Positions 1 through 64,000 of a stretch of 64,000 bases of DNA are shown in pieces. The notes below the pieces were generated by a model. It was not told the origin of the DNA, ran no database searches, and saw only the letters and a program-made list of their open reading frames with translations. Within the stretch, counting starts at the first letter, position 1. Each line of letters opens with the position of its first letter. A program made the position numbers and the translations under genes. Source of the stretch: a virus; IMG/VR virus record IMGVR_UViG_3300046167_000032, positions 1 to 64,000 of that record. The stretch is one strand, 5' to 3'.

Positions 1-209
1 TCTGGGTCTTTTACTGTAGTATATCTATAGAGTAATCCATTTATATCTACACCACCAATACTAGGTAAGATAGAATCCATAGACCAACCTAATGCACCTG
101 ATGCCGCATTACCTGTAGCTCCATACGTATATGGTTCAGAGTAGGAGTAAGAAGGCAAGAGTACTAAAGATAACACCCAAGCCAATCTTAGTTTCACTGT
201 TCTCATCAA
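1..209 (-). CDS. 5' part of secreted protein (allele of 53904-54776), truncated by window edge
   Basis: Nucleotide match to 54568-54776. Confidence 0.85.
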   Translation of the reverse strand, partial: MMRTVKLRLAWVLSLVLLPSYSYSEPYTYGATGNAASGALGWSMDSILPSIGGVDINGLLYRYTTVKDP

Positions 210-693
210 ACATCTTTCTGATTACATTATTTTGATCTCGTTCGATCTCATCTTTAACTGCTTCCATATCCCATGCTAGTCTAGCTTGATCACCAACTAA
301 TCCATCTTTAGGACATGGTGTACCTGCATTCATCATAGCATCGAACACTCTTTCGTCTTGACACATTACTGATACTGCGGCTACCTTCATGCCCATGTCA
401 TACATAGTCTTAGCATTCTTGAGCTTCTCACAGTTCATGTCACGTACTGTACGACCTGCTGAGATACCTAGTATCTGTGTCTGTACCGCCCCTGCTACAC
501 CTACAGTACATAAGTCAGAGTTACTTGCACTTATCTGTGGAGATATGGCTGATGGTGGTGGGCTATTGATTGTAGTATCCATAGACCCATTAGATGTTAT
601 AGTACTGTTTGTATCAGTATATATTGTGTCATCATCATTGGCATATACAGTACTGCCAATTAGTAGGGTAAGTAATATAAGTAAGAGTTTCAT
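136..693 (-). CDS. Secreted Cys-containing protein with C-terminal membrane anchor (copy A)
   Basis: Sec-type signal MKLLLILLTLLIGSTVYA, 4 Cys, hydrophobic C-terminus; allele at 54703-55257. Confidence 0.8.
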   Translation of the reverse strand: MKLLLILLTLLIGSTVYANDDDTIYTDTNSTITSNGSMDTTINSPPPSAISPQISASNSDLCTVGVAGAVQTQILGISAGRTVRDMNCEKLKNAKTMYDMGMKVAAVSVMCQDERVFDAMMNAGTPCPKDGLVGDQARLAWDMEAVKDEIERDQNNVIRKMFDENSETKIGLGVIFSTLAFLLLL

Positions 694-956
694 TTATTAT
701 CTTGTTCTGCCATTCTCTCTACTAGGTTACGAATAGCTTTAATGTTTTCATCAATACGACCTAGAGAGACAGCTTGCATTTGTACTGTTTTCTCTAGTGT
801 ATTTATACGAGTTTCTTGACGAACTAAATCACGAGCATTATTTTTGACGGAAGAGTCTAATGAAGACACATACCATACAAGTGATATAGTTTGTAGTACG
901 ATAGCTACGATTAACGTAACTGGTACTGACTTAGAAAGATGCCAACTCTCGGTCAT
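690..956 (-). CDS. Single-TM coiled-coil membrane protein (copy A)
   Basis: TM segment VPVTLIVAIVLQTISLVWYV followed by a heptad-rich tail; identical protein at 55254-55520. Confidence 0.8.
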   Translation of the reverse strand: MTESWHLSKSVPVTLIVAIVLQTISLVWYVSSLDSSVKNNARDLVRQETRINTLEKTVQMQAVSLGRIDENIKAIRNLVERMAEQDNK

Positions 957-3345: not shown

Positions 3346-3762
3346 TTATGTTGGCTTTGTAGGCCATGTTACTGTATTCGGAAAACCTGCTTGATCTGGT
3401 AGGTTTAGCAAGTCAGTTCGGTATTGTGTCCACTCTGCTTGTTTAACATCTGTAAGTTCAGCCCAACGTAGAGGGTTAGTTACTATAGGGTCTACTTCTT
3501 CTACTAACCTTTGGTCACGCTGACCTCTTAGGTTTGCCGCTAGTTCTGCATCTAGCTCTGCTTGAGTAGGTGCTACATAAGCCGCATAGTCTGAACCGAT
3601 AAGTTCAAGCAATACGCTGTTGTCTACAGTATTATCTGTATCATCAGGCATTAATGAATAAGGTATCCAATCAAACTCTGGATGGTTAATTTCTAGTTCA
3701 AATGCAGTATTCTCTGCGTTTAATGATTGTGCGTTACGCACTTCTGTTATTGTTATTGTCAT
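3346..3762 (-). CDS. Tail fibre assembly chaperone-like protein
   Basis: C-terminal W..YR..LL.LP.QAGFP..V.WPTKP motif; start MTITITE has an AAGGA RBS. Confidence 0.8.
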   Translation of the reverse strand: MTITITEVRNAQSLNAENTAFELEINHPEFDWIPYSLMPDDTDNTVDNSVLLELIGSDYAAYVAPTQAELDAELAANLRGQRDQRLVEEVDPIVTNPLRWAELTDVKQAEWTQYRTDLLNLPDQAGFPNTVTWPTKPT

Positions 3763-3773
3763 TTTTATTTCCT

Positions 3774-21075: not shown

Positions 21076-21588
21076 TTATTCCACCATGTGTAATGCTTGT
21101 TCAAGCGTTTCTTTGTTACGCCTAGACCAACCACGTCCAAATGTTTTGTACGTATCTAATCCTTCATAGAACCCTTGTCTTACTGTATATACATAATCAA
21201 TAATATACTTAGGGTCTTTCTCCATAACAAGTTGTAGTGTCTTAGGACCAATAGCACCATCTGCTGTAGCACCTACTGCACGTTGTATAGCTTTAGCAGG
21301 TCTACCACTACCACTATTAACAGCCCAATCGAATGCACACCAATCTACCCCCGATGGAAGTTGATCACCTTTGACTCTATCCCAATAGTTCTGTTTATAT
21401 ATTGGGGCTACATCTTCTGGTGTTAAATCACGCATCTCTTCTTCTGTAGACTCACGACCAATCCATTCGTCATATACACGTTTAGTTACACCAAGATTAG
21501 TCATGCCACCGGGATCACTAGGATGATTAACGTAACCACCCTCGTGTTCCAGTAGCATTTCTAAACATTCATTAAAATTACTCTTCAT
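21076..21588 (-). CDS. Endolysin, glycoside hydrolase family 108 with peptidoglycan-binding domain
   Basis: HEGGYVNHPSDPGGMTNLGVT, FDWAVNSG, DGAIGPKT, FGRGW. Confidence 0.93.
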   Translation of the reverse strand: MKSNFNECLEMLLEHEGGYVNHPSDPGGMTNLGVTKRVYDEWIGRESTEEEMRDLTPEDVAPIYKQNYWDRVKGDQLPSGVDWCAFDWAVNSGSGRPAKAIQRAVGATADGAIGPKTLQLVMEKDPKYIIDYVYTVRQGFYEGLDTYKTFGRGWSRRNKETLEQALHMVE

Positions 21589-21590
21589 TA

Positions 21591-21950
21591 TTATTTTTTC
21601 CCACCGAAGAACTTACTTACGCCACGCATACCAATGCTGGCACTAACGATTCCACCTAAAGAGTACTGATACCAATCAGGCATAACCTCTAACGCAGTAA
21701 AACCTGCTTGTACTATTTCATTACCCCAATCACCACAGAAGGCTAAAATCAAAGGAATGGAAAACAATAAAGTAATCCATTCATCTTTCCAGCTATTCTG
21801 TGTGGCTTTCATAGCCTCAATATCCCAGTCTATTTCACCTGTGGCTATCTTCATTTTTGTTTCAGCTTCTGCTTTCTTTACAGCAGTCTTGCCTTCTATA
21901 ACTGTACCAGCAAGATTAGCTACTTGACCTATTAAGTTTAGTCCTAACAT
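21591..21950 (-). CDS. Putative holin
   Basis: Two to three hydrophobic segments, SWKDEW motif, basic C-terminus, adjacent to endolysin. Confidence 0.65.
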   Translation of the reverse strand: MLGLNLIGQVANLAGTVIEGKTAVKKAEAETKMKIATGEIDWDIEAMKATQNSWKDEWITLLFSIPLILAFCGDWGNEIVQAGFTALEVMPDWYQYSLGGIVSASIGMRGVSKFFGGKK

Positions 21951-22279
21951 TATCCGTTGTTACCTTTCACTTCTTTCTTGCTCATGTTAGTTACTCCGAA
22001 GAATACACCAACTATACCAGCTACAGATAAGAAATATATAGAGGCCATAGAGCCAATGATGTCAGCGGCTTGATCAGCACCTACAATAGTACATAGCAAT
22101 ACTAGAAATGGATATGCAAGCATACCAACTAAGCAGAACCATGCCATACGTCTTTGTGCATCTCTCTGAGCATCTTCATCATCGAGTCTACGTCTACGAT
22201 CTTCTAACGCTAAAGCATCCCACTCAGTCTTGTCTATAGAGCCATTGTTGTCTACATCTACTTCTTCAAAGCTAGTCAT
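21950..22279 (-). CDS. Membrane protein with N-terminal EF-hand loop
   Basis: DVDNNGSIDKTE loop plus two TM helices. Confidence 0.65.
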   Translation of the reverse strand: MTSFEEVDVDNNGSIDKTEWDALALEDRRRRLDDEDAQRDAQRRMAWFCLVGMLAYPFLVLLCTIVGADQAADIIGSMASIYFLSVAGIVGVFFGVTNMSKKEVKGNNG

Positions 22280-52080: not shown

Positions 52081-52109
52081 ATTATACTCTATCTTAATAT
52101 CTGTGTCAA
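52081..52109 (-). promoter_or_regulatory. Perfect sigma70 consensus promoter
   Basis: TTGACA-N17-TATAAT. Confidence 0.85.
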
Positions 52110-52117
52110 GCATTAAC

Positions 52118-52618
52118 TTAATCTGCTAGTGGATTATCTAGTGCACGTTGTAATTTAGTTACTAGTCTATCTTCTAGTTCTTTCATTTCTGAAGACTGTG
52201 ATGCCCTTACACGTTCTCGTTGATTCTCAAACCTTATTTCAGCATCATCTATCATAGTACGTACCTTGTCTTCATTGTCACGTACCATATCCTCAATACG
52301 ATCTGTCTGTTGTTCTATTCTTAACAGATCATCTTTCAGACCATTCTTAATATCTCTAGTGTACTCTACACTCTCTTCAACCTTCTCAGATATACCAGAC
52401 ACTTTAGCATCCATTACATCCATTTGTTGTTGATATGCACCTAAGTCTAACCCTGCAACTTCTTCTATCTTTTGGTATAGAGTGAAGCCACCATACAGAC
52501 CACCAACTACTGTAGACAAGAAAGCTATTATAGCTAGTACTGAACTTGCTGTTAGTTTTACACCACCAGCTTTTACTTCTTTATCTGCTAGGCTTTCAAC
52601 GTTTGTTAAATCTACCAT
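52118..52618 (-). CDS. Membrane-anchored coiled-coil protein
   Basis: TM VLAIIAFLSTVVGGLYGGF followed by a long coiled coil ending DNPLAD. Confidence 0.75.
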   Translation of the reverse strand: MVDLTNVESLADKEVKAGGVKLTASSVLAIIAFLSTVVGGLYGGFTLYQKIEEVAGLDLGAYQQQMDVMDAKVSGISEKVEESVEYTRDIKNGLKDDLLRIEQQTDRIEDMVRDNEDKVRTMIDDAEIRFENQRERVRASQSSEMKELEDRLVTKLQRALDNPLAD

Positions 52619-53034
52619 TAGTTCTCAAAGTCCATACCACCTGTCTGTTGCAGGTTCTTTAATGCTTCTAGCTCATTACGTAGTTGTTGTATCTCTAGTC
52701 TACGTTGAGCTAACTCTACCTGATACAAGTCGTCACAATTAATACGAGACTTAGGTTTATCAAGAGGTATAACAACACGAGCATATAATCCTACATCTTT
52801 ACTTTGGTGTGCAAAACTTGATGGACTAAATGTACCACCTACATTGTTGACTACACCTGTAACACCAAACTCTAAGTTTACACCACCACCTACAGCATTA
52901 CTACAGTCTAAGTTACCTGCCCTAAATCTATCTGACTGATAGTTCATTGGTGGGTTAGGTAGTGTTAGAGCTAGGTTGTTACTCTCAGCTACTGCTGAAC
53001 TAGCTACGACACATAATGCCAATGCTAATCTCAT
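52618..53034 (-). CDS. Secreted protein with C-terminal coiled coil
   Basis: Signal MRLALALCVVASSAVA, Cys pair, amphipathic beta-strands VNLEFGV / VGLYARVVIPL. Confidence 0.75.
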   Translation of the reverse strand: MRLALALCVVASSAVAESNNLALTLPNPPMNYQSDRFRAGNLDCSNAVGGGVNLEFGVTGVVNNVGGTFSPSSFAHQSKDVGLYARVVIPLDKPKSRINCDDLYQVELAQRRLEIQQLRNELEALKNLQQTGGMDFEN

Positions 53035-53417
53035 GCAGGTTCACCATCAATACGAGAGCATATCCTAGAGACAACCAAAGTTCTTGAGTCTGTCTTTTTT
53101 CTTACCTTTGATGTAGTACAAATATATGTAGCTTCATCTAAATCTAACTCACGTATATACACAATAAAATCTTTACGTTCTTTATAACCTACTTTAATGA
53201 TCCTATACTTAGATGAGAATGGTAGGTTTGTAAAGTTTAAATCAAATAAATCTATCTGATAATATTCTACATCTTCTCGTGAGTTAAACAAAGACATCTC
53301 TGCTTTAACTACACCTGCAACATACGTAGGTTTTAACATTGGGTAGGCTGGTGTCATTTCATGTGCAGAAACAACAGTAGCCCAACCCATAAACGCTATG
53401 ATTAGTTTATTTAGCAA
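53031..53417 (-). CDS. Secreted Ig-like protein (periplasmic pilus-chaperone-like)
   Basis: TTG start, signal ...WATVVSA, HEMTP...SLFNSR pattern, Cys pair. Confidence 0.5.
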   Translation of the reverse strand: MLNKLIIAFMGWATVVSAHEMTPAYPMLKPTYVAGVVKAEMSLFNSREDVEYYQIDLFDLNFTNLPFSSKYRIIKVGYKERKDFIVYIRELDLDEATYICTTSKVRKKTDSRTLVVSRICSRIDGEPA

Positions 53418-53895
53418 TACAAGTAGCCTGTACAACTGCAGTGTACGTACCTCCCGGCAAAGGTTTAGCTGAACCGTAGACTGCACTTGATGCAGTAGAG
53501 AACCATGTTGAACCTGCAAGAGTTAGGTTAAAGATAGTGGTACTATCTACTACAACTTTTGCATCATTATAAGCTGACATTCCTGACACAGAAGTTTTAG
53601 TTACACTTGTACTTCCTGTCCATGCAAGTGTATCTGTAAGGTTGGGTGAAGAGCTAAAGGATGTAGGGTGAGTTATGTTTGCAGTGTATGAGTCTGCAAT
53701 AGATACATCAAACCTAATTACAGGTAGTACACCACCATCTGAAGGTGTTGTGCTTAACTTACTGGCAATAGGGTTGCCGTATACACCAGCTTTATCTGCT
53801 TGAATAACACACTTGGCGGCTACGCTTCCTGTAATATCTACAGTAGCAAATGCTGGTAATGCACAAAGTGATAGTAGTGCTGTTAAATATTTCAT
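53407..53895 (-). CDS. Secreted fimbrial-subunit-like protein
   Basis: Signal MKYLTALLSLCALPAFA; VDITGSVAAKC N-terminus; PGGTYTAVVQAT C-terminus. Confidence 0.55.
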   Translation of the reverse strand: MKYLTALLSLCALPAFATVDITGSVAAKCVIQADKAGVYGNPIASKLSTTPSDGGVLPVIRFDVSIADSYTANITHPTSFSSSPNLTDTLAWTGSTSVTKTSVSGMSAYNDAKVVVDSTTIFNLTLAGSTWFSTASSAVYGSAKPLPGGTYTAVVQATCIAK

Positions 53896-53903
53896 TGTAT
53901 TCC

Positions 53904-54776
53904 TCATTTGTTATACTGCATGTCTACCATTTTTTCATGTAGTACTTGTTGGGCTAAATTGTTTCGTAAGGCTTTCTTATTGTCGGGTATAGTTCCATCT
54001 TTTAATCCAGCCGCATCGTTTAGTGTACCGCCGTTTATCTTTGCATTATAATACATATTGATATTAGTTTGTTTGTTTAGGGCTAATATTATATCGCTTT
54101 GATTCTGTGCCTTGAATAGTGTAAGAGCATTAGCAGAGGCAGTTAATCCCATCTCTATGCGTGTCTCCTCTTCTTCCTCTTCTTCATCTAGTATAAGTTT
54201 ACCATCTTCGTCATACTGAAACTCTTCAGCTTCTAGTGTATCTACAACTGCATCATCTTCTAGTGCATCATAGACTATAACCTCTGGTAATACTGGCATA
54301 GGCTTTACATAACCTACACAAGATGGGTCAGACTGTGGATCATAGCATTTGTCTAACCTGTAGTTGTATATTACAACAGCATCTTTAACAGTTCCTTCAC
54401 CCTCAACTTCAACAAACCCAGTACCCCATTTAGATGCTGGTATATTTGAAAGAGGGAAAGACTTAACAATAGTATTTCCGGGTACGCCAGACCAGTCATC
54501 AGTCTCTCTAAATGTATAACCATCTCCACTTGCGTTGTGATTACCTACATGTACCTTCATGTCAGCATCTGGGTCTTTTACTGTAGTGTACCTATATAGT
54601 AATCCATTTATATCTACACCACCGATACTAGGTAAGATAGAGTCCATAGCCCAACTTAATGCATTAGATGCCGCATTACCTGTAGCTCCATACGTATATG
54701 GTTCAGAGTAGGAGTAAGAAGGCAAGAGTACTAAAGATAACACCCAAGCCAATCTTAGTTTCACTGTTCTCATCAA
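53904..54776 (-). CDS. Secreted protein with acidic linker
   Basis: Signal-like N-terminus, CYDPQSDPSC, poly-Glu tract. Confidence 0.75.
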   Translation of the reverse strand: MMRTVKLRLAWVLSLVLLPSYSYSEPYTYGATGNAASNALSWAMDSILPSIGGVDINGLLYRYTTVKDPDADMKVHVGNHNASGDGYTFRETDDWSGVPGNTIVKSFPLSNIPASKWGTGFVEVEGEGTVKDAVVIYNYRLDKCYDPQSDPSCVGYVKPMPVLPEVIVYDALEDDAVVDTLEAEEFQYDEDGKLILDEEEEEEETRIEMGLTASANALTLFKAQNQSDIILALNKQTNINMYYNAKINGGTLNDAAGLKDGTIPDNKKALRNNLAQQVLHEKMVDMQYNK

Positions 54777-55257
54777 ACATCTTTCTGATTACATCGTTTT
54801 GATCTCGTTCGATCTCATCTTTAACTGCTTCCATATCCCATGCTAGTCTAGCTTGATCACCAACTAATCCATCTTTAGGGCATGGTGTACCTGCATTCAT
54901 CATAGCATCAAACACTCTTTCGTCTTGACACATTACTGATACTGCGGCTACCTTCATGCCCATGTCATACATAGTCTTAGCATTCTTGAGCTTCTCACAG
55001 TTCATGTCACGTACTGTACGACCTGCTGAGATACCTAGTATCTGTGTCTGTACTGCCCCTGCTACACCTACAGTACATAAGTCAGAGTTACTTGCACTTA
55101 TCTGTGGAGATATAGCCGATGGTGGTGGGCTATTGATTGTAGTATCCATAGAACCATTTGAAGTTATAGTACTATTAGTGTCAGTCTTTATAACATCATC
55201 ATCGGCATGTGCAATACTACCGATTAGTAGGGTAAATAGTATAAGTAAGAGTTTCAT
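54703..55257 (-). CDS. Secreted Cys-containing protein with C-terminal anchor (copy B)
   Basis: Allele of 136-693. Confidence 0.8.
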   Translation of the reverse strand: MKLLLILFTLLIGSIAHADDDVIKTDTNSTITSNGSMDTTINSPPPSAISPQISASNSDLCTVGVAGAVQTQILGISAGRTVRDMNCEKLKNAKTMYDMGMKVAAVSVMCQDERVFDAMMNAGTPCPKDGLVGDQARLAWDMEAVKDEIERDQNDVIRKMFDENSETKIGLGVIFSTLAFLLLL

Positions 55258-55520
55258 TTATTATCTTGTTCTGCCATTCTCTCTACTAGGTTACGAATAG
55301 CTTTAATGTTTTCATCAATACGTCCTAGAGAGACAGCTTGCATTTGTACTGTCTTCTCTAGTGTATTTATACGAGTTTCTTGGCGAACTAAATCACGAGC
55401 ATTATTTTTGACGGAAGAGTCTAATGAAGACACATACCATACAAGTGATATAGTTTGTAGTACGATAGCTACGATTAACGTAACTGGTACTGACTTAGAA
55501 AGATGCCAACTCTCAGTCAT
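55254..55520 (-). CDS. Single-TM coiled-coil protein (copy B)
   Basis: Same protein as 690-956, synonymous SNPs only. Confidence 0.8.
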   Translation of the reverse strand: MTESWHLSKSVPVTLIVAIVLQTISLVWYVSSLDSSVKNNARDLVRQETRINTLEKTVQMQAVSLGRIDENIKAIRNLVERMAEQDNK

Positions 55521-55533
55521 GGTTTAGTATTCC

Positions 55534-55761
55534 TTATTCTGGTTTAGTAGGCCATGTTATATTATTTGGGAAGCCATCTTGATCTGTAACGTCCAAAAGA
55601 GCTTGGCGATAATTTTTCCATGCAGTCTTCTGTTCATCAGATTTTGCTTCCCATTCAATAAATCTGCTAGGCATTGGGTCAACTTCAGTTTCTAAAAGTT
55701 GATCTCTTATTAACCTAACGGCGCTTTCCATTTGCTCTACTGAGTGTTCTTCACTAGACAT
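55534..55761 (-). CDS. Tail fibre assembly chaperone-like protein
   Basis: WKNYRQALLDVTDQDGFPNNITWPTKP. Confidence 0.8.
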   Translation of the reverse strand: MSSEEHSVEQMESAVRLIRDQLLETEVDPMPSRFIEWEAKSDEQKTAWKNYRQALLDVTDQDGFPNNITWPTKPE

Positions 55762-55780
55762 TTTTAATACCTTTTTTTAA

Positions 55781-57718
55781 TTAAAGTGGGATTATAGCTA
55801 ATTGCATTGAGGAATCATACCATTGAAGATAGCCTTGGTTTTGAGTTTCATGTTCCCCAGCCGTAACTCTAATTTTCTGACCTGAAGAAAGATATGCACT
55901 ACTCCAACTGCCAAACGGATTACTGATACTGCCTGTACTTGAGCTAGGAGAACCGCCATAAAACGGATTTGTGCTATTAACGACATTACCATTAACATAT
56001 ACTCTATATGAGTAGCCATAATAACCACCTGTTGAAGTATAATACCTATATTTTAGTAGGGCACTTATCGCAAATACAAGACAATCAGAAGTTGCAGTAT
56101 ATTCCAGCAAATACTGACCAGCATTGTATTTTTCTAAAGCACCCTTGTCGTCATTATATGCCGCATTATTACCAGAAGTTATTGTAACAACGCTCGCTCC
56201 ACCAGCAGGGTCTGTCCATTGAGCAGTACCAGCAGATGCGTATGTAAGCAGTTGGTTTGCAGAACCGCCACTAGGGATGTGATTGTTACCATTACCTGTT
56301 GGGTGTGTGTAGTTATTAGCACTTGTTGCTATGCCATCAAGCTTAGAACCATCTGATGCTACATCACGTCCGTCTACTGTACCTGATACAGCTATATTGC
56401 CTGTTACGTCAACTCCGCTTGATGTTGTTTCAATTTTCTTTGAATTGTCGTAACGTAGATTTACAGCACCATCCTTACTAGCACCTATATAAACTTCACC
56501 TGATGAACTACCAATCTCAACATAATTATCATCTTGTATATACATATTACCAGTAGTATTAGTAACAAATGTATGTGAACCATTGTGATAAATCTGTAGG
56601 TCATCAGCATTACCAAATCTAGCTTTCTCATTATCTCCAAAGCTAATTGAGTGACCATTGACATCTAAAGCTCCACCTAGTTGTGGTGTAGTGTCACTCA
56701 CAATGTCTGTGCTTAGATTATCAAATGATGTTTTAAACGCTGCTATGTCTACACCATCTACTGTACCTGATACTGCAACGTTGCCTGTTACTGATATGCC
56801 TGTTGATGTTGTGGCTAGTTTAAGGTTGTTGTCGTAGTAAAGTTTTACTGCGCCATCTTTTATAAACTCAGACATTTTTCCGTTTGCGCCGCTACCATCA
56901 CTTACTAACTGTATCATTGAACCGTTAGTATCTATAGATAGTATGCCATCCCCCACATCTTCTATGTATGAGTTATTACCGTCATGGTATATTCTAAAAT
57001 CAGACCCAGCACCGAATATGGCTTTGTCGTTGTCACCGAATGACAAGTCACCTGTCATTGTGCCACCAGCTTTTGGTAACTTGGTAGCCAATGCTGTTGT
57101 GAGTGTAGAATTATAGTTAGCATCATCATTGATAGCCGCAGCTAACTCATTCAAATCATTGAGTGTGCTTGGTGCGCCACCTATAAGTGTTGTAATCTTA
57201 TCTGTAACGTAAGCTGTTGTAGCTACCTTAGTACTATCATCAGACTCAGCTTGTGTTGTTGCTGTAGTAGTAGATGATAGAGAACCGCTAAGTGTACCAC
57301 TGATAGTACCTGTAGCTGTTATGTTACGGAAACCTGTTATATCTTTGTTTGTATTGACTACGACAGCTTTAGATGCTGATACTGTACCTGCAGTAATACC
57401 ATCAATGCTCTCTAAGTCATTCTCATTAATATCAGCACTACCTATTACAAAGCTACCGCCTGAGATAGCACCTGTAGTTGTTATAGTAGATGAGCCGTTG
57501 TCTATATTACCAAAGCCTGACGTTATGCTACCACTATTCAATGAACCTGTAGAGGTGATGTTAGTTGTAGTGATACCATCGACGTATGCTTTGATAGACT
57601 GCTGACTAGCAATACCAGTAGCAGAGTCACTAGCAAGATTATCCTCATCAAGGAAGCTCTTACCATCTAAGATGTTTATCTCTTGAGCACTATCTGCTAA
57701 GTCTCTTGCCTTACTCAT
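55781..57718 (-). CDS. Tail fibre 2 (allele B)
   Basis: First ~220 aa nearly identical to 977-3334; different C-terminal part. Confidence 0.88.
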   Translation of the reverse strand: MSKARDLADSAQEINILDGKSFLDEDNLASDSATGIASQQSIKAYVDGITTTNITSTGSLNSGSITSGFGNIDNGSSTITTTGAISGGSFVIGSADINENDLESIDGITAGTVSASKAVVVNTNKDITGFRNITATGTISGTLSGSLSSTTTATTQAESDDSTKVATTAYVTDKITTLIGGAPSTLNDLNELAAAINDDANYNSTLTTALATKLPKAGGTMTGDLSFGDNDKAIFGAGSDFRIYHDGNNSYIEDVGDGILSIDTNGSMIQLVSDGSGANGKMSEFIKDGAVKLYYDNNLKLATTSTGISVTGNVAVSGTVDGVDIAAFKTSFDNLSTDIVSDTTPQLGGALDVNGHSISFGDNEKARFGNADDLQIYHNGSHTFVTNTTGNMYIQDDNYVEIGSSSGEVYIGASKDGAVNLRYDNSKKIETTSSGVDVTGNIAVSGTVDGRDVASDGSKLDGIATSANNYTHPTGNGNNHIPSGGSANQLLTYASAGTAQWTDPAGGASVVTITSGNNAAYNDDKGALEKYNAGQYLLEYTATSDCLVFAISALLKYRYYTSTGGYYGYSYRVYVNGNVVNSTNPFYGGSPSSSTGSISNPFGSWSSAYLSSGQKIRVTAGEHETQNQGYLQWYDSSMQLAIIPL

Positions 57719-57737
57719 GTTTGATCTCCTATGTAAA

Positions 57738-58046
57738 TCATTCTTCTACTAACATCCAAGATGTAATATCTTCATTCCAAATATATTTGTTTTCTATATC
57801 AGGTATTTCTACTGGTGCATTCCATTGACAAGTAGTTTCGTTTAATACCCATGAAGGGTATGGTTTTGGGTGTATAAAAGCGTCTCTAGTGCTATCGTAA
57901 GTACCACCTACACTAGCATAATTTTTTCTTATGTTGCTATTGTATGAGGTTTGTACCCACGTACCTTCAAGCTCACTAATATAATCTTCATCAGCAACAA
58001 TTACCTCTACAACTGTGCCTTCTATAATCTTTGCGTAATGTGCCAT
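57738..58046 (-). CDS. Small partner of glycine-rich fibre-tip protein
   Basis: MAHYAKI...WVQTSYN..IRKNYA..G.TYD..RDAFI.PKPYPSW.L.E.TC.W.AP. Confidence 0.7.
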   Translation of the reverse strand: MAHYAKIIEGTVVEVIVADEDYISELEGTWVQTSYNSNIRKNYASVGGTYDSTRDAFIHPKPYPSWVLNETTCQWNAPVEIPDIENKYIWNEDITSWMLVEE

Positions 58047-58059
58047 ATTTTATTTACCT

Positions 58060-59031
58060 TTAAGAGATAGCGTATCTAACAATAACAATTCCAGAACCGC
58101 CACCGCCACCATATCTAGTGCCATCGTAACCAAGAGATCGGCCACCACCGCCACCTCCACCTGTGTTAGCAGAAGCTGAAGGGGCATAGGGTTGGCTTCC
58201 ACTAGCACCATTTGCACCGCCACCAGACCCACCAGAACCACCTGAGTAATCCCAAGCACCACCACCTCCGCCACCAGCGTAGTAAGTTCCATTTAGCCAC
58301 TGAGAACCATTACCTCCAGCAGTACCATTAGAGCTACCATAACCTGTTTGATTAGTCCCAGATTGACTTGCGCCTCCACCGCCAGCACCAGCAGAATAAT
58401 AGCTGTTAGTTCTATTACCTCCACTATTACCTTGACCTGAAGTTCCTGAACCACCTGATTTATTATCTGGCCCACCTGATGCTCCACCACCAGAACCCCC
58501 AGAGTTACCATTATAGCCTTCACCACCACCGCCACCGCCGCCAGTTGAGGTCAAACCAAAGCCAGAACTGTTAGAACCATTGCTACCTGATGATAAATAA
58601 CCACCGCCGTTACCGCCAGCACCTATAGTAATACTATATCCTTGAGCAGAAGAGTTAGCAGAACCTGTCCTGTACCCTCCAGCACCACCACCGCCGCCGT
58701 GGGCTGTACCACCGCCTCCACCACCAGCTACTACAAGATACTGTAAAGTGTTTGAACCTGCGGCATTTCCAATAGAGCTGACAGTAAATGTACCTGACGA
58801 AGTAAAGACATGATATTTATAACCACCAGAAGTAGATGTTGTACCACCAGAGGCTGAAATATACTGTGCATTAGCCTTACCATGACCTTGAGACATAGCA
58901 ATTTGACCATCAGCATCATCAAATAGAGTTCTTACAGCACTGTCATTCATGGTGATTTGTGCTGTACCACTTAGGCCAAGCTCTACATTTACGTCATTTA
59001 AAGATATCTGTCCGCTAGATGGTAACGTCAT
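58060..59031 (-). CDS. Glycine-rich putative adhesin / fibre-tip protein
   Basis: MTLPSSGQISLNDVNVELG attachment-type N-terminus, many polyglycine runs, GGGGSGIVIVRY end. Confidence 0.75.
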   Translation of the reverse strand: MTLPSSGQISLNDVNVELGLSGTAQITMNDSAVRTLFDDADGQIAMSQGHGKANAQYISASGGTTSTSGGYKYHVFTSSGTFTVSSIGNAAGSNTLQYLVVAGGGGGGTAHGGGGGAGGYRTGSANSSAQGYSITIGAGGNGGGYLSSGSNGSNSSGFGLTSTGGGGGGGEGYNGNSGGSGGGASGGPDNKSGGSGTSGQGNSGGNRTNSYYSAGAGGGGASQSGTNQTGYGSSNGTAGGNGSQWLNGTYYAGGGGGGAWDYSGGSGGSGGGANGASGSQPYAPSASANTGGGGGGGRSLGYDGTRYGGGGGSGIVIVRYAIS

Positions 59032-59034
59032 GTG

Positions 59035-62000
59035 TTATCTCGCCTTTAGTTCTTCGATTTCAGCTTTAAGTTCTTTGATTGCTTCAATCATTAATCCATG
59101 AAGTTGATCATACTGCACTGTCTTGTATTCAGTCTCATCATCTTCACCCATCTTGAGAGGTAATGTACTTTCAGTAATTGCACTTGGCATTACCTTCTCG
59201 ACTTCTTGGGCGATAACACCAGCAGACTTTTTGCCATCGGCTAGGTATTCAAATGTGTAACCATTTAGCTGTGATACTTTATCTAAGGCATTGTCTATCT
59301 TCACGATGTCTTTCTTTAGACGCTCATCAGAGACTGTTGTAGAATAAGCAACAACGTTACCTTCAACGTGTAGGTCGCCATCATTCTCAAGGCGCATGTC
59401 TTCTGCACCATCTAAATACCACTTGTGAGTTGTCGTTCCAACAAGGTAGTAATCGTTAGTGTCACGACCCATGTAGAAAATCTCACCACGACAGTCGCCG
59501 CCGTTGATTGTGCCTGTTACTGTGACACCGCTTGATGTTGTTTCAAATTTCTTGGAGTTGTTGTGGTATAGCTCTACTGCTCCATTCGGTATAGCTTTAA
59601 TCATATTTTCGGATGCAGTTTTAATCTGGATTGGGTGGTCATTTACAGCAACAATCTGATTGAAGCCGCCAGCATCATGGTAAATCTTTAAATCATGTGA
59701 GTTACCAACTCTTAATTCTTTGTTATCTGCTAATTCAATGTGAGAACCAAATGTAGCAATCCCACCTTCAGACATATCAAGTGTGAGGGCTGTAATACCA
59801 GAACCGCCATCATTGCCTTTAAATACAATGTCTCCGTCTTGTTCCCCAGACCTTAACACAAAATTACTAGAAGCCTTTTCAACTACTCCGTAAATAGTTC
59901 CAGCGTCTTGAAAATAAACTGTACCACTATTATCAGCATCAAGTTTTATAACTCCTGCAACATCTAAGGTTAGGTCGCCGTTATCTGCAAAAATCCTACC
60001 GTTTGTTCCATCGCTGTTTATGGATAAATCTGCCCCTGCTCCCATCTTGACATAAGCGCCATCAGGAAAAGTTGCATCGTGATTAAAGATTGCTGTACCA
60101 GCATCAGACATATCAAGACGAAGGGCTTCTCTCTCTACGCCACCATCATTACCTCTAAAAATAATGTCTTTGTCTTCGATTATAGATTTAAAAACTGCAT
60201 CTTCACCATTCCTTCTAATACTTGCAAAGTGTAATCCACCATCCTTAAAAATGATATCAGCACCATCCGCATCAAGAATAATCTCCCCTGCGGAATCTAG
60301 TGTTAGGTCGCCAGATGGACTAGCTATAGAGCCATCTAAGTAGAAGTCTTTAAAACGGCGGCTTGTACTCCCTAGATCAACAGTATTATTTGATGTAGTA
60401 CCATAATTGTTAGTTGGTATGACACTGCCAGATGCGAAAGACAAACCAACATGATTTGTAGTTGATGAATATATTACAAGGTCATCAGATTTAGTCCCAA
60501 TATTACCTACAGTTGTGCTGTCTTTGCGGAAGTTGAGTATGTCGCCATCAGAGTTTAGCCTTCCAAAATATCCTGATGTCTGACCATCAGCCACAGCGGC
60601 TATTGCATCAAGGTCTGACCTAAGTTTTATACCTTGACTTACTGTTGCTTGGCTAGTAGTACCCACCAACAAGTTGCCTGATGAGTCTATACGCATTGTC
60701 TCCCCCGACCCACCAACATTTGTAAAAACAAGAGGTGCGGCAGAAGATGATGAGGTAGCAGTTCCACTTTGAATATAATTTACGCCGCCTGTGCTAACAA
60801 GCCGCATGGCAGAGTTACTGCTGGAAATATACTGCTCACCAGCGGTTGAGTTATAAACGTGCAAACCCCCACTAGGCGAACTCGTCCCAATACCAACTCG
60901 GCCTGACGAATCTAATGTCATAGCAGTGCTTGATGCATTATCATCAATACCTGTAGATTCAAAACCTGCAATAGTACCAGTCATAGTACCACCAGCTAGT
61001 GGTAGTTTAGTAGCAATAGAGTTTGTTATAGTAGTACTAAATGATGCATCATCGTTTAAAGCTGCGGCTAACTCATTAAGTGTATTAAGAGAACCCGGTG
61101 AGCTATCTACAAGGTTAGCAATAGCTGTGTCTGTATAAGCTTTGATAGACTGTTGTGTGGCTAGTGCTGTTGCACTGTTAGATGCCATATTATCTTCATC
61201 AAGTATGTTTGTAATAGACACAGAGCCTGTACCAGATAAACTATCAAACTCAACCGATCCACCAACGTCTAAGTTACCTGTCATAGTACCGCCAGATAAG
61301 TTTAGTTTTTCTGTATCATTAGCTAATGGAATCCAGTTACCTGCATGTGCGAAGTAACCTTTACCTGTTGCATGAACGTGAGCAAACATACCGTGATAAG
61401 TTGATGCACTTGGTAAGTCTGATAATTGAGAATATACGTTACCGAATAGAACTTTATTGCCGTTACCATCAATGTCACCTGTCATAGTGCCACCAGCTAG
61501 ACCTAAGAACCTAGCATCAGATGCTGTCTTACTATAGTGATCTGCAAGTTGGAATGTACCGTAACCTACGATGTCAATAATATCACCAGCAGTAGCACCT
61601 GCACTTAGTACTACAGTAGAACCGCTTGTAGCTGTTACGTCTGTACCGACTAAAAGTTTTACACCATTAAGATATACATCTACGTAGCCTACATCATATG
61701 TTGCAGAGAATGTAGTCTGTCCTGATGTAGCAGTATATGTGTTACGACCAGATGTACCATTAACTGATGAACCTGCCGCTTGCCAACCACCTGATCCACT
61801 ACGAACAAACATAATGTTACTTGTAGTGTTAAAATACAATGCACCTGCTATTAAAGCGTCACCATCATTGTCTACTGAAGGAGCAGATGATTTAGCACCT
61901 AAGTATCTGTCGTCAAAGTCATCATAAGAATTAGCGGCATTAGTAGCACTGGTAGCCGCAGCTGTTGCTGAGTTAGCTGAGTTTGTAGCTGATGTTGCCG

Positions 62001-63813
62001 CTTGAGTAGCTGAAGTAGCCGCTTGAGTAGCACTTGCCGCCGCCGCTGTATTAGAACCTGCGATACTATCAACATACAGTTTTGTTGCCGCATCAGTATT
62101 AACAGTAGGTGTACCTAATCCAGTAATCTTATTGCCACCCATAGCTATAGCAGATGCCATAGTACCACCTGATTTTAGTAAGGCAGTTGTGTCAACGTAG
62201 TTCTTAGTAGCACCATCTTGATTAGCAGTAGGATCACCTAGTCCAGTTATCTTACTTGTACCCATAGCTATAGCACCAGACATAGTGCCACCTGATAAGT
62301 TTAACTTAGTAGCATCTTGTGCATCTACATAACCTTTACGAGATAGCTCATCATTTGTTGCAGGGTTAGCTGTAGATGTTACAGCGTTAGTACCCATTAC
62401 AATGTCACCTGTTAGTGTTCCACCAGCTAGAGGTAACTTAGTAGCTATAGAATTAGTAATAGTAGTTGAGAAGTTTGCATCGTCATTGATTGCCGCAGCT
62501 AACTCGTTAAGAGTATTTAGGGCATCAGGAGATGAGTCAACTAAAGCAGACACCTCAGTGTCTACATATCCCTTAGTAGCGGCATCTGTTGAAGCACTTG
62601 GAGCACCTAAGCCTGTTACTTTACTACCGCCCATAGCAATAGCACCTGACATAGTTCCACCAGACAAGTTAAGCTTTAGTGCATCTGCAGTATCTACATA
62701 GTTCTTTGTAGCCGCATCTTGAGCACTGGTTGGATCAGTAACATTAGCAATAGTTGTACCTGTAACATCTAGTGTACCGTTTACAGTTACATTGTTAAAT
62801 GTAGATAAACCTGACCCTGCAGTTACATTACCCGTCACATTGCCTGTAAGATTACCAGTAACGTTACCTGTGATATTGCCTATTACGTTACCTGTAAGTG
62901 GGCCTACAAGACTTGAACCTGTAATTGTTGTACCTGTGATTGCGGCTGTAGAAGAAGCACCAATAATAGTACCATCAATATTACCACCGTTTATATCTAC
63001 AGTAGCTAACGTAGCCTGACCAGATGTAGAGACTGTAGTAAAGCTACCAGCAACGGCTGTTGATGCACCTATAACTGTATTGTCTATATTACCTGCATTA
63101 ATGTCTACAGTAGTTAATGTTGATGTTCCTGTAGCTGTTAGGTCTGTCACAGTAGCAGGTGAAGCTGATGAAGCACCAATAGTTGTACCATCAATAGAAC
63201 CTGCATTAATATCTACAGTAGCAAGAGTAGAAGTACCTGTAGCACTTAGTGTAGTAAATGAACCAGCACCAGCAGTTGTACCACCTATAGTTACGTTATC
63301 TATAGCACCAGAGTTTATGTCTACAGAAGTAATAACACCTGTAGTTATATTAGCTGTGCTTAGGGTAGTTGTTCCAGTAACACCTAATGTACTTCCTATA
63401 GTAAACGTACCTGCAACTGCACCATTAATATCTACATCTAGTGTATCTATGTGTGCTGTACCATCTAAGTATAAATCTTTAAACTCTAAACCAGATGTAC
63501 CTAAGTCTATATCATTAGTTATTACAGGTATAATAGCCCCATCAGAGAAGCGTATTTGTTCTACTGCGGCTGAAGATACCTCTACAAAGACACCTACTTG
63601 ATTAGTAGCAGTGTTTATGACGACTTTGTTTAGTGCGTCAACATCACCGATAAGAGGAATGTAACCACCTTCTCCTGTTGAGCCATCGTGCTTGTGTCCA
63701 CTTGATACAGCGAATGCATCACGGAGTTTGTTATACTCGGCGTTAATAGGCGCTGCACGAACTGTAGCTGTTGGTATTATGTCTGCTGAAGACTGTCTTA
63801 CGTAACCTGCCAA
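59035..63813 (-). CDS. Tail fibre 1 (allele B) with C-terminal peptidase S74 intramolecular chaperone
   Basis: SDERLKKDI...GVIAQEVEKVMP...IEAIKEL; N-terminal ~945 aa shared with allele A. Confidence 0.92.
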   Translation of the reverse strand: MAGYVRQSSADIIPTATVRAAPINAEYNKLRDAFAVSSGHKHDGSTGEGGYIPLIGDVDALNKVVINTATNQVGVFVEVSSAAVEQIRFSDGAIIPVITNDIDLGTSGLEFKDLYLDGTAHIDTLDVDINGAVAGTFTIGSTLGVTGTTTLSTANITTGVITSVDINSGAIDNVTIGGTTAGAGSFTTLSATGTSTLATVDINAGSIDGTTIGASSASPATVTDLTATGTSTLTTVDINAGNIDNTVIGASTAVAGSFTTVSTSGQATLATVDINGGNIDGTIIGASSTAAITGTTITGSSLVGPLTGNVIGNITGNVTGNLTGNVTGNVTAGSGLSTFNNVTVNGTLDVTGTTIANVTDPTSAQDAATKNYVDTADALKLNLSGGTMSGAIAMGGSKVTGLGAPSASTDAATKGYVDTEVSALVDSSPDALNTLNELAAAINDDANFSTTITNSIATKLPLAGGTLTGDIVMGTNAVTSTANPATNDELSRKGYVDAQDATKLNLSGGTMSGAIAMGTSKITGLGDPTANQDGATKNYVDTTALLKSGGTMASAIAMGGNKITGLGTPTVNTDAATKLYVDSIAGSNTAAAASATQAATSATQAATSATNSANSATAAATSATNAANSYDDFDDRYLGAKSSAPSVDNDGDALIAGALYFNTTSNIMFVRSGSGGWQAAGSSVNGTSGRNTYTATSGQTTFSATYDVGYVDVYLNGVKLLVGTDVTATSGSTVVLSAGATAGDIIDIVGYGTFQLADHYSKTASDARFLGLAGGTMTGDIDGNGNKVLFGNVYSQLSDLPSASTYHGMFAHVHATGKGYFAHAGNWIPLANDTEKLNLSGGTMTGNLDVGGSVEFDSLSGTGSVSITNILDEDNMASNSATALATQQSIKAYTDTAIANLVDSSPGSLNTLNELAAALNDDASFSTTITNSIATKLPLAGGTMTGTIAGFESTGIDDNASSTAMTLDSSGRVGIGTSSPSGGLHVYNSTAGEQYISSSNSAMRLVSTGGVNYIQSGTATSSSSAAPLVFTNVGGSGETMRIDSSGNLLVGTTSQATVSQGIKLRSDLDAIAAVADGQTSGYFGRLNSDGDILNFRKDSTTVGNIGTKSDDLVIYSSTTNHVGLSFASGSVIPTNNYGTTSNNTVDLGSTSRRFKDFYLDGSIASPSGDLTLDSAGEIILDADGADIIFKDGGLHFASIRRNGEDAVFKSIIEDKDIIFRGNDGGVEREALRLDMSDAGTAIFNHDATFPDGAYVKMGAGADLSINSDGTNGRIFADNGDLTLDVAGVIKLDADNSGTVYFQDAGTIYGVVEKASSNFVLRSGEQDGDIVFKGNDGGSGITALTLDMSEGGIATFGSHIELADNKELRVGNSHDLKIYHDAGGFNQIVAVNDHPIQIKTASENMIKAIPNGAVELYHNNSKKFETTSSGVTVTGTINGGDCRGEIFYMGRDTNDYYLVGTTTHKWYLDGAEDMRLENDGDLHVEGNVVAYSTTVSDERLKKDIVKIDNALDKVSQLNGYTFEYLADGKKSAGVIAQEVEKVMPSAITESTLPLKMGEDDETEYKTVQYDQLHGLMIEAIKELKAEIEELKAR

Positions 63814-63817
63814 AGTA

Positions 63818-64000
63818 TTATCTCCTGTCGGCTGTCTCATACGTCAAGGCTACTGCCTGTATAGTATGACTTGCATTTGTATTATTCGTAACATAACTTA
63901 TTGAAACAGAGTTACCTGATCCAGATATATTTGTAAGTGTTTTAGGTGAGGGATTACCATCATATATACCACCTGCTCCATATATAGCTGTACCATAAAT
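63818..64000 (-). CDS. 3' end of tail tubular protein B (copy B), truncated by window edge
   Basis: Matches 8390-8572 with two SNPs. Confidence 0.9.
   Translation of the reverse strand: MYGTAIYGAGGIYDGNPSPKTLTNISGSGNSVSISYVTNNTNASHTIQAVALTYETADRR

Follow-up and report, generated by a model that had tools for sequence, protein, structure and literature searches.

A mobile marine phage cassette of predicted envelope proteins with a pilin-like and chaperone-like pair and a putative role at lysis

Gene layout and predicted export

The window analyzed here, 64,000 nucleotides of the viral record IMGVR_UViG_3300046167_000032, contains an HMO-2011-type marine podovirus that is abundant in the ocean. 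Its genome of ~54.5 kb is represented by two haplotypes within the window. Seven open reading frames, g1 to g7, lie densely packed on the minus strand at 52118-55520, and a partial second copy opens the window:

g1, 55254..55520, minus strand: 88 aa; by hydropathy, one N-terminal membrane segment and a coiled-coil-like tail
g2, 54703..55257, minus strand: 184 aa; signal peptide, 4-Cys domain, C-terminal hydrophobic anchor
g3, 53904..54776, minus strand: ~289 aa; signal peptide, then a beta-rich N-domain joined by a poly-Glu linker to a conserved C-terminal part
g4, 53407..53895, minus strand: 162 aa; pilin-like subunit with signal peptide and beta-sandwich
g5, 53031..53417, minus strand: 128 aa, TTG start; chaperone-like cap with signal peptide and single Ig-like domain
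g6, 52618..53034, minus strand: 138 aa; signal peptide, not a lipoprotein; heptad-patterned C-terminus
g7, 52118..52618, minus strand: 166 aa; one membrane segment and ~120 coiled-coil-like residues
Sigma-70 perfect consensus (TTGACA, 17 nt, TATAAT), 52081..52109, minus strand: pattern match only
Second haplotype copy, 1..956, minus strand: 96% identical direct repeat with g1 (690-956), g2 (136-693) and the start of g3 (1-209)

All seven frames of the first-pass annotation are present, and the tight coupling it described is evident in overlaps of 4 nt (g1/g2), 74 nt (g2/g3), 11 nt (g4/g5), 4 nt (g5/g6) and 1 nt (g6/g7), with an 8-nt gap separating g3 from g4. In this genome the cassette follows tail-fibre genes inside the tail and internal-protein block, 31 kb away from the lysis genes. 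The sigma-70-like site falls within the 69-nt gap between g7 and an 808-aa gene; this consensus match notwithstanding, the total of promoter-like sites in the region is no higher than chance.

Each of g2-g6 has an N-terminus with a basic residue and a hydrophobic core, and with small residues in positions -3/-1. This pattern agrees with the Sec-type signal peptides initially assigned to five genes, and a crude scan of 76 non-overlapping ORFs found it nearly restricted to this module. Past the predicted cleavage sites, g2 has four cysteines and g3, g4, g5 and g6 two each, the even numbers noted before, and all of them are invariant across the alignments. Judged from sequence, g2-g7 very probably constitute an exported envelope cassette. 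The two flanking genes, g1 and g7, do carry a single hydrophobic segment each, but the coiled coils ascribed to them are sequence patterns with weak, sub-threshold matches. For g1 these are with DUF7365 (E 1.7e-5) and with holin and Rz-like families of PHROG (Rz-like E 2e-3).

As had been noticed, the start of the module occurs in both strain copies, with divergence concentrated around the g2 cleavage site. The differences, a 3-nt indel among them, cluster where the g2 signal peptide ends and its mature chain starts. Similarity is lost upstream of g1, and the variable start of mature g2 adjoins the point at which the tail-fibre module is swapped between haplotypes.

Conservation and mobility of the cassette

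A synteny survey recovered g2-g7 in the same order in ~120 viral contigs, and the order is constant across ~70 close loci and all 55 distant loci. Co-conservation as a unit is therefore upheld for six of the seven genes originally grouped together; g1 is restricted to the closest relatives, seen at few related loci, and the conserved unit is, by synteny, g2-g7 with g1 excluded. Carriers have unrelated backbones, among them a phage of 328 kb, whose genome is complete, and one of 60.6 kb in which the TerL of this genome has no detectable match (positive controls worked); the portal of another carrier is just 23% identical. The cassette is set among sugar-metabolism genes in the 328-kb phage and flanked by opposite-strand genes at a further locus (L136). 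To judge by these settings, it is horizontally mobile. The earlier remark that no usher is present holds for this genome and for the complete 328-kb carrier: PF00577 had no match in either, nor in three further carrier records (two of the five are complete).

Following its signal peptide, g2 has a variable Thr/Asn-rich stretch, a PPPSAISP motif, a nearly invariant 4-Cys domain and the C-terminal hydrophobic anchor. It matches PHROG 20531 (E 1.4e-13), and its 4-Cys domain is common to the pelagiphages HTVC033P, 115P, 202P, 023P and Mosig, the roseophages CRP-207 and CRP-810, and Ralstonia phage RSP15. g3 has one Cys pair in its beta-rich N-domain, a C-terminal part that ends in MVDMQY, and no family match in Pfam or NCBIfam; the domains of g3-type proteins vary, and one such protein, HTVC033P gp45, carries a carbohydrate-binding annotation. 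g6 belongs to a viruses-only family (PHROG 37374, E 2.7e-6; no match in Pfam), with a conserved L-x-L-x-L-P-x-P-P N-terminus and the C-terminal end EFEN. Its C44 and C100 are invariant, C8 is not conserved, and the Gly-rich strand pair that the two invariant cysteines bracket may be read as a clamped hairpin. g7 always closes the cassette and has a homologue in HTVC115P gp49 (E 5e-14). With a short N-terminus and a conserved C-terminal NPLAD, it appears shaped like an inner-membrane spanin subunit, a plan based on hydropathy and sequence pattern, and it matched no spanin family.

A predicted complex of g4 and g5

The first-pass annotation had likened g4 to fimbrial subunits on the strength of an N-terminal ITGSV..C and a C-terminal GTYTA pattern, and both are present and conserved across 90 relatives. 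In the N-terminal V-x-I-x-G-x-V strand, I21 and V25 are 100% and G23 94% conserved; V19 and A27 are also part of the alternating pattern, and the residues in between are variable. C29 and C159 are 100% conserved, the latter in a C-terminal strand of the form G-x-Y-x-A-x-V-x-A-x-C. The N-terminal motif agrees in register with E. coli pilins and is the sole profile-profile match to them: in hhalign comparisons with 21 pilins of E. coli K-12 the probability was 17%, over only 17 columns, all within the motif. Fimbrial family HMMs (PF00419, PF05229) gave no Pfam match at E up to 1 and no NCBIfam match. For the AF2 model (pLDDT 90), Foldseek ranks chaperone-usher pilins first at weak E-values of 2.6e-3 to 0.06, and VIA-align finds a generic beta-sandwich closest to MSCRAMM-type domains (Z 7.8), with no chaperone-usher pilin among the 50 matches listed (lowest Z 6.1). 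The pilin likeness of g4 resides in its motifs, its weak Foldseek ranking and its modelled complex with g5, and does not extend to fimbrial HMMs or to the VIA-align fold. After the g2 core, g4 is the most conserved cassette protein (80-100% identity).

g5 has an invariant mature N-terminus, HExTPAYP, and an Ig-like domain with a C100-C120 pair. The top Foldseek matches of its AF2 model (pLDDT 79) are Caf1M, PapD, DraB and FimC at E about 1e-3. VIA-align places SafB (Z 9.7), FimC (9.6), MSP domains (8.5-9.2), YadV (8.8), PapD (8.3), FaeE (8.1), and CupB2 and CsuC (both 8.0) high, with 91-107 residues aligned per match, in a field where 920 chains reach Z >= 5 and an unrelated CsxA domain ranks first (10.3). 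Alignments to FimC, PapD and FaeE begin at the mature N-termini of both partners, and an Atlas lead gives PapD_N at 0.82. The PapD_N HMM has no match at E up to 1, nor up to 10 in six frames, and hhalign against 11 E. coli chaperones gave a probability of 0.4%. The two-domain boomerang of such chaperones (PF00345 + PF02753) is absent: the mature ~110 residues model as one domain, with no second domain adjacent. As modelled, g5 is a single PapD/MSP-like Ig domain, so the chaperone likeness proposed for it survives at the level of fold but not of HMM matches. Its invariant H19, at the predicted mature N-terminus, falls in the predicted g4 interface; by comparison with histidine-brace copper proteins (CopC/YcnI/LPMO-like), g5 is without a second invariant His, and its matches to copper-protein folds (Z 7.8-7.9) rank lower than those to PapD-like folds.

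The g4:g5 complex is predicted at an ipSAE of 0.79, against 0.00 for the best control; this mark was attained by 58 of the 80 complexes with solved structures and by 2 of the 110 mismatched pairs, though the alignments used here were not of the calibrated kind. Across the three runs at least 96% of contacts are shared, and partner pLDDT is at least 87. Residues 114-120 of g5 lie parallel to g4 154-159 and also against g4 29-31, which sets the last g5 strand against the first (A) and last (F) strands of g4, parallel to F, and leaves the N-terminal V-x-I-x-G-x-V strand of g4 free. Interface residues are conserved above the rest in both proteins (p 0.024 for g4, p 0.01 for g5), and 8 of the 13 g5 positions conserved at >= 97% are in the interface; I21, G23 and V25 of g4 are kept despite lying outside it.

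We consider it probable that g4 and g5 form a strand-complemented pair, as in donor-strand complementation. Solved chaperone-subunit structures that the model has memorized could, however, account for this score. A disulfide between C29 and C159 might also clash with a fully inserted strand, as both cysteines sit on the g4 strands that flank the donated strand. The pilin-like and chaperone-like assignments nevertheless did better than anticipated, with a PapD/MSP-like model of g5 and a donor-strand-like interface in a predicted complex that passed its controls.

Linkage to lysis genes

In this genome the lysis genes form a trio at 21076..22279:

Holin-like gene, EF-hand plus 2-TM, 21950-22279, minus strand
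PHROG 2524 membrane protein, 21591-21950, minus strand
GH108 endolysin, 21076-21588, minus strand

The endolysin is indeed distant from the cassette here, as had been noted of the lysis genes, but this separation is particular to the genome type, and 54 of 62 close relatives have the cassette directly next to the holin-like gene and endolysin. At nearly all of these loci 11-18 nt separate g7 from the start of the holin-like EF-hand/2-TM gene, which is followed by the PHROG 2524 protein and then the endolysin. Many distant relatives likewise have holin-like and endolysin genes next to the cassette or inside it, and at five distant loci the holin-like gene stands between g6 and g7. g2-like genes also adjoin lysozymes in HTVC033P and CRP-810. 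Marine phages, then, usually carry the cassette beside or within their lysis genes.

Spanin genes occur alongside it. In one lineage (L160, L176, L177), overlapped Rz-like spanin genes (E 1e-12, 1.5e-16) and a lysozyme lie directly upstream of g2, and another cassette (L133) contains a u-spanin-like gene with a lipobox and C-terminal anchor. Because of this co-occurrence, the cassette is not a simple spanin replacement. The window has no lipobox ORF on a coding frame, and therefore no canonical outer-membrane spanin; nor is a lipobox conserved in g2-g6.

Proposed function and alternatives

A role of the cassette at lysis seems to us plausible, if a little short of an even prospect; its adjacency to lysis genes may instead reflect a shared late-expression hotspot for accessory genes. 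Slightly more tentatively, we propose that its products form a periplasmic complex without an usher that is active at lysis, and is neither a surface pilus nor part of the virion. Late in infection, the proteins would assemble in the periplasm unaided by an usher. The complex would be tethered to the inner membrane by g7, and possibly also by the C-terminal segment of g2, and would reach the wall or outer membrane via g6, g4 and g3. There it could help to break or release the outer layers at lysis, or set the timing of this step. The broader claim of a phage-encoded cell-envelope apparatus is borne out, as is its co-conservation as a unit; among the options listed for it, a mini-pilus now ranks behind a putative lysis-linked envelope device.

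A more specific, and unlikely, form of this proposal is a g7-anchored, periplasm-spanning lysis or egress machine built by usher-less donor-strand exchange. Either the L-x-L-x-L N-terminus of g6 or the N-terminal strand of g4 itself would displace the g5 cap, and the chain so formed would link up with the outer layers via g3 and g2. If true, chaperone-usher assembly would gain its first usher-independent relative, and a virus would be seen to use its mechanism for the first time.

On our estimate unlikely to a similar degree is a device for superinfection exclusion, receptor masking or lysis inhibition that blocks or senses a second phage. T4 Imm/Sp and RI and T5 Llp are precedents for exclusion and lysis inhibition. 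Every product is envelope-targeted, the cassette comes after tail-fibre genes with the variable g2 start adjoining the haplotype fibre swap, and a place beside holin-like genes would also suit a lysis-timing sensor. The association of g2 variation with the fibre swap can, however, be mere linkage, an arms-race interface is at odds with the near-invariant g2 core and g4, and the cassette shows no recognized similarity to known exclusion systems, which to our knowledge consist of one or two proteins each as against six here. We give somewhat less credence to an extracellular fibre or adhesin, in which g4 would polymerize by donor-strand exchange and be displayed on infected cells after crossing the outer membrane through a g6 or g3 pore or a host usher. 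The pilin-like terminal strands of g4, its chaperone-like predicted complex with g5 and its Foldseek ranking all suit a fibre, and the Cys-bracketed strand pair and heptad-patterned tail of g6 could oligomerize. Against this, two complete carrier genomes have no usher, the conservation of g4 is atypical of a surface-exposed fibre, and lysis linkage with late-block expression leaves little time for a pilus to matter.

A strict spanin replacement is improbable; here g7 would serve as inner-membrane subunit, and g6, together with g2-g5, would be its non-lipoprotein counterpart on the outer side, to fuse or rupture the outer membrane. The spanin plan of g7, its translational coupling to g6 (both coiled-coil-like by pattern), the absence of a lipobox ORF from the window and the holin and endolysin genes directly downstream in most relatives would fit, but g2-g6 have no conserved lipobox, six proteins far exceed the needs of a spanin, and one lineage has Rz-like pairs together with the full cassette, while another has a u-spanin-like gene. 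Least probable is periplasmic cargo freed at lysis, for example a binding protein that is secreted or a complex resembling a toxin, that lies near lysis genes only for late expression, as morons do in lambdoid late operons. Export and disulfide bonding are predicted for the proteins, the cassette is a mobile, self-contained unit, as its sugar-metabolism and opposite-strand surroundings illustrate, and g3-type proteins have variable, in one case carbohydrate-binding, domains; yet g2 and g7 have membrane anchors, several lineages have a holin-like gene inserted within the cassette, and Pfam and NCBIfam revealed no toxin-like or enzyme domain. We therefore retain the lysis-linked periplasmic complex as our preferred, if tentative, reading.

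Comparison with known systems

Chaperone-usher pili (FimC-FimA, PapD-PapA/G, Caf1M-Caf1, CsuC-CsuA/B) are among the closest known systems. As in these systems, g4 is a predicted Sec-exported subunit whose free N-terminal strand alternates hydrophobic residues about a central Gly, with a Cys after it, and whose C-terminal strand reads G-x-aromatic-x-A; its partner has a PapD-like Ig fold and is predicted to bind through its last strand, parallel to the last strand of g4. Unlike them, g4 and g5 have no HMM- or profile-level homology to pilins and chaperones, g5 has one domain of ~110 residues instead of two, the g4 Cys pair would join the first and last strands, the g4 sandwich is larger and nearer to MSCRAMM-type domains by VIA-align, and the cassette is found without an usher gene, in lytic-type phages beside lysis genes.

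With lambda Rz/Rz1 spanins the cassette shares coupled genes, the N-terminal anchor and coiled-coil-like plan that g7 (and g1) have by hydropathy and sequence pattern, and proximity to holin-like and endolysin genes in most relatives. It differs in having six genes rather than two and no lipoprotein partner, and in coexisting with bona fide Rz-like pairs in one lineage (L176). g2 resembles the phage T1 gp11 u-spanin in its N-terminal export signal and hydrophobic anchor at the extreme C-terminus, but the signal is of the signal-peptidase-I type without a lipobox Cys, which would leave the N-terminus of g2 without an outer-membrane tether.

Pelagiphages HTVC115P (gp54-gp53-gp49) and HTVC033P (gp46-gp45-gp44) carry trios annotated as hypothetical, apart from the carbohydrate-binding HTVC033P gp45, and have no g4, g5 or g6. 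Both trios include g2 homologues (E 1e-39 and 3e-30). By eye, and without a significant score for the motifs, HTVC115P gp53 and HTVC033P gp45 occupy the g3 position with the same signal, beta-domain and acidic-linker plan, gp53 has the C-terminal ..VDMQY motif in common with g3, and HTVC033P gp44 has a g7-like plan that ends in an NPLxx motif.

Results

Our sequence comparisons delineate a six-gene cassette for putatively exported proteins, g2-g7, which appears common to unrelated phage backbones, tied to lysis genes and outside any described family. With g1 it forms a run of seven tightly coupled minus-strand open reading frames (ORFs), all present in the window as the first-pass annotation had described.

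Genes of the run (window coordinates, strand, description)
g1, 55254-55520, minus, flanking gene
g2, 54703-55257, minus, first gene with a signal peptide
g3, 53904-54776, minus, signal peptide
g4, 53407-53895, minus, signal peptide, candidate pilin-like subunit
g5, 53031-53417, minus, signal peptide, candidate chaperone-like partner
g6, 52618-53034, minus, signal peptide
g7, 52118-52618, minus, flanking gene

The signal peptides claimed for g2-g6 hold up by sequence pattern, each with a basic residue, then a hydrophobic core, with small residues placed at -3/-1. A crude scan of 76 ORFs chosen without overlaps showed such N-termini almost exclusively in this module. The even cysteine numbers were likewise recovered (four in mature g2; two each in g3, g4, g5 and g6), and every mature-chain cysteine is invariant in alignments of relatives. 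The flanking genes, described as membrane-anchored and coiled-coil, do carry one membrane segment each, but their coiled-coil-like sequence is backed by weak family matches only. Over a 74-nt overlap (54703-54776), two frames encode the C-terminal hydrophobic anchor of g2 and the signal peptide of g3; relatives show comparable overlaps, and two metagenome proteins (P0335 and P0329) are in-frame g2-g3 fusions that may be real or assembly errors. Two assignments were ruled out: g6 as a lipoprotein, as C8 is not conserved, and g2 as a u-spanin, as it has no lipobox.

The window is part of an IMG/VR virus record of 80,374 bases. Its large structural proteins share 32-38% identity with those of Puniceispirillum phage HMO-2011 and roseophages CRP-345 and CRP-1, and the 808-aa protein encoded directly after g7 shows 62-63% identity over its C-terminal two thirds; because of these identities, we assign the genome on sequence grounds to the HMO-2011-type marine podoviruses. 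Bases 1 to ~9400 repeat 54568-64000 at ~96% identity, with ~54.5 kb between the copies, and the record therefore joins two haplotypes of one phage. As noted at first pass, the haplotypes diverge around the g2 cleavage site, most of their differences falling where the signal peptide ends and the mature protein starts. Their similarity ends just upstream of g1, near 956 / 55520, which marks a recombination boundary; past it lies a tail-fibre assembly gene in one copy and another tail-fibre module in the other. The gap of 69 nt that separates g7 from the 808-aa gene contains a perfect consensus TTGACA / 17 nt / TATAAT (52081-52109, minus strand), which may give the internal-protein genes downstream their own promoter.

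Across ~70 IMG/VR loci whose g4 is 80-100% identical, the g2-g7 order is kept wherever the contig allows. Starting from a g4 relative of 41% identity, another scan added 55 loci in which profile searches found g2-g3-g4-g5-g6-g7 in that order wherever the locus reached. The proposed co-conservation thus stands for g2-g7 in the surveyed loci, but g1 belongs to the closest loci only. The window TerL matched itself and one 54.9-kb sibling; it had no match in a 60.6-kb record that is 99% complete and has an 88%-identical g4, nor in a complete record of 328 kb bearing terminal repeats, nor in several carrier fragments of 70-100 kb, and the portal of one carrier is just 23% identical to that of the window. 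Since carriers differ in TerL and portal, the cassette moves among marine phages whatever their virion architecture. A virion component is unlikely, because the proteins have export signals and conserved cysteine pairs and the cassette is carried by phages with unrelated virions. The isolated pelagiphages HTVC115P and HTVC033P have a shorter version in the same place, with a g2 homologue and g3-like and g7-like proteins and without g4-g6; the g3-like relation, and the g7-like one in HTVC033P, were recognized by eye from a shared plan and C-terminal motifs. In Roseobacter phage CRP-810, an unannotated 86-aa ORF with a lipobox (LSAC; 3558-3818 of locus L087) directly follows a membrane-anchor and coiled-coil-like gene, precedes the g2-like gp53 and weakly matches part of the g2 four-cysteine domain (E 1.2e-3).

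No family HMM in Pfam or NCBIfam matched g2-g6. For the set g1-g7, these two collections and PHROGs returned just PHROG groups of unknown function and weak coiled-coil matches. Profile searches of g2, g3 and g6 alignments against PDB sequences yielded nothing meaningful. Among 1.8 billion representatives, g4 had just 77 matches, mostly fragments of the same family, with no link to any named family. Word-index searches related 391 proteins to g4 and scored nearly 8,000 hits against the g2 domain; the matches listed were all unnamed or hypothetical. Longer forms of g2 comprised N-terminally extended versions and two g2-g3 fused ORFs, with no informative domain fusion. In the ESM Atlas, g5 drew a sub-threshold lead to PapD_N (0.82) and g6 drew none, and the literature that we searched describes neither phage-borne chaperone/pilin pairs nor the g2-g7 module.

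The g5 model (pLDDT 79) is a single Ig-like sandwich. Its best Foldseek rows are Caf1M, PapD, DraB, FimC, CsuC and MSP domains (E about 1e-3), and VIA-align returned SafB (Z 9.7), FimC (9.6), MSP (8.5-9.2), YadV (8.8) and PapD (8.3), several of these alignments matching the two proteins from their mature N-termini onwards. Since Ig-like folds are widespread and the VIA-align list is headed by an unrelated domain (Z 10.3), the matches show a predicted fold type, not family membership. The earlier reading of g5 as a single Ig-fold chaperone is matched by its PapD-like model and by no family HMM. Residue 19 of g5 (53361-53363), an invariant His within HExTPAYP, is the predicted mature N-terminus, a placement reminiscent of histidine-brace copper sites. 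This residue touches g4 in the predicted complex, and we have demoted a histidine brace to a low-probability side idea.

g4 is modelled (pLDDT 90) as a larger sandwich whose N-terminal stretch is unstructured. As to the pilin-like label given to g4, Foldseek ranked chaperone-usher pilins first, weakly; no family HMM matched, and VIA-align placed MSCRAMM-type domains first at a middling Z of 7.8. In profile-profile comparison with 21 E. coli pilins, the sole match was the N-terminal motif (probability 17%). The predicted g4:g5 complex reached an ipSAE of 0.79 versus 0.00 for the best of three controls; 58 of 80 solved complexes attained that mark, as did 2 of 110 mismatched pairs. Three runs share at least 96% of contacts, with partner pLDDT of at least 87. 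In the predicted complex, g5 114-120 forms an in-register, parallel pairing with g4 154-159 and also touches g4 29-31. Such strand pairing is the geometry of donor-strand complementation in Fim, Pap and Caf structures. Because the model may be recalling those chaperone-subunit structures, the prediction shows likeness to donor-strand pairs rather than binding. Conservation in both proteins is higher at the interface than elsewhere, and the g4 N-terminal pattern V19, I21, G23, V25 is nearly invariant though outside the g5 interface, as would be expected of a strand kept for exchange. Together with the pilin motif match, these conservation patterns lend the pair modest independent support.

Discussion

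We propose that the cassette encodes a usher-less periplasmic assembly whose core would be a strand-complemented g4:g5 pair and whose anchor would be g7. We infer that it acts at lysis, where it could help to break or free the outer layers or control the timing. The first-pass annotation placed the holin and endolysin genes elsewhere, which is true of the window, where a holin-like gene, a PHROG 2524 membrane protein and a GH108 endolysin occupy 21076-22279, but not of most relatives. The first of these is listed here.

21950-22279, minus, gene for a 109-aa protein in holin position, with an EF-hand motif at its N-terminus and two membrane segments

Among 62 close loci with enough flank, 54 carry homologues of the window lysis genes within 1 kb after g7; the holin-like gene starts 11-18 nt after g7 in nearly all of the 54, and the endolysin is of GH108 or PHROG 181 type. 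The remaining eight share the window's own arrangement. Distant relatives place the holin-like gene between g6 and g7 (5 loci), or have a homologue of a queried lysis gene within 1 kb after g7 (16 loci) or just upstream (2 loci). Where distant loci have none of these, other wall hydrolases occur close by: a PHROG 938 endolysin in L150, and SleB-like sequences, recognized by eye, in L162 and L173. In addition, g2-like genes adjoin lysozymes in HTVC033P and CRP-810. The lysis neighbourhood is therefore the usual place of the cassette. Homologues of the EF-hand protein are cassette-linked in many phage lineages, including the 328-kb phage; we know of no described calcium-binding holin-like protein.

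Rival readings stand beside this one. A strict spanin replacement would have the cassette stand in for the spanins, and the window has no lipobox ORF. In L176, however, an overlapped Rz-like pair (4452-5169; PHROG 739, E 1.3e-12; PHROG 812, E 1.5e-16) lies with a lysozyme directly upstream of g2, and L133 carries a u-spanin-like gene with a lipobox and C-terminal anchor (7222-7602) between g6 and g7. Because canonical-looking spanin genes sit beside or inside the cassette, it is no simple replacement for spanins. The other rivals are cargo set free at lysis, a sensor for superinfection or lysis inhibition, and a surface fibre, which would draw on the pilin-like features of g4.

Phages of the HMO-2011 type and their relatives rank with the most abundant marine viruses, and by lysing SAR11, SAR116 and roseobacter-type hosts they drive carbon turnover. 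To our knowledge, the means by which they breach the outer envelope are largely unannotated, and several thousand database proteins related to the cassette genes offer a target for annotation. If g4:g5 strand complementation is real, a virus would encode a minimal one-domain chaperone and pilin-like subunit with no usher, which would extend donor-strand assembly beyond its known range and provide a small, tractable model of it. The cassette departs from chaperone-usher systems in that g5 would be a one-domain chaperone, the g4 cysteine pair joins the first and last strands, unlike that of chaperone-usher pilins, and, as first reported, the usher is missing, with none found in two complete carrier genomes. 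These differences argue against membership of the chaperone-usher family.
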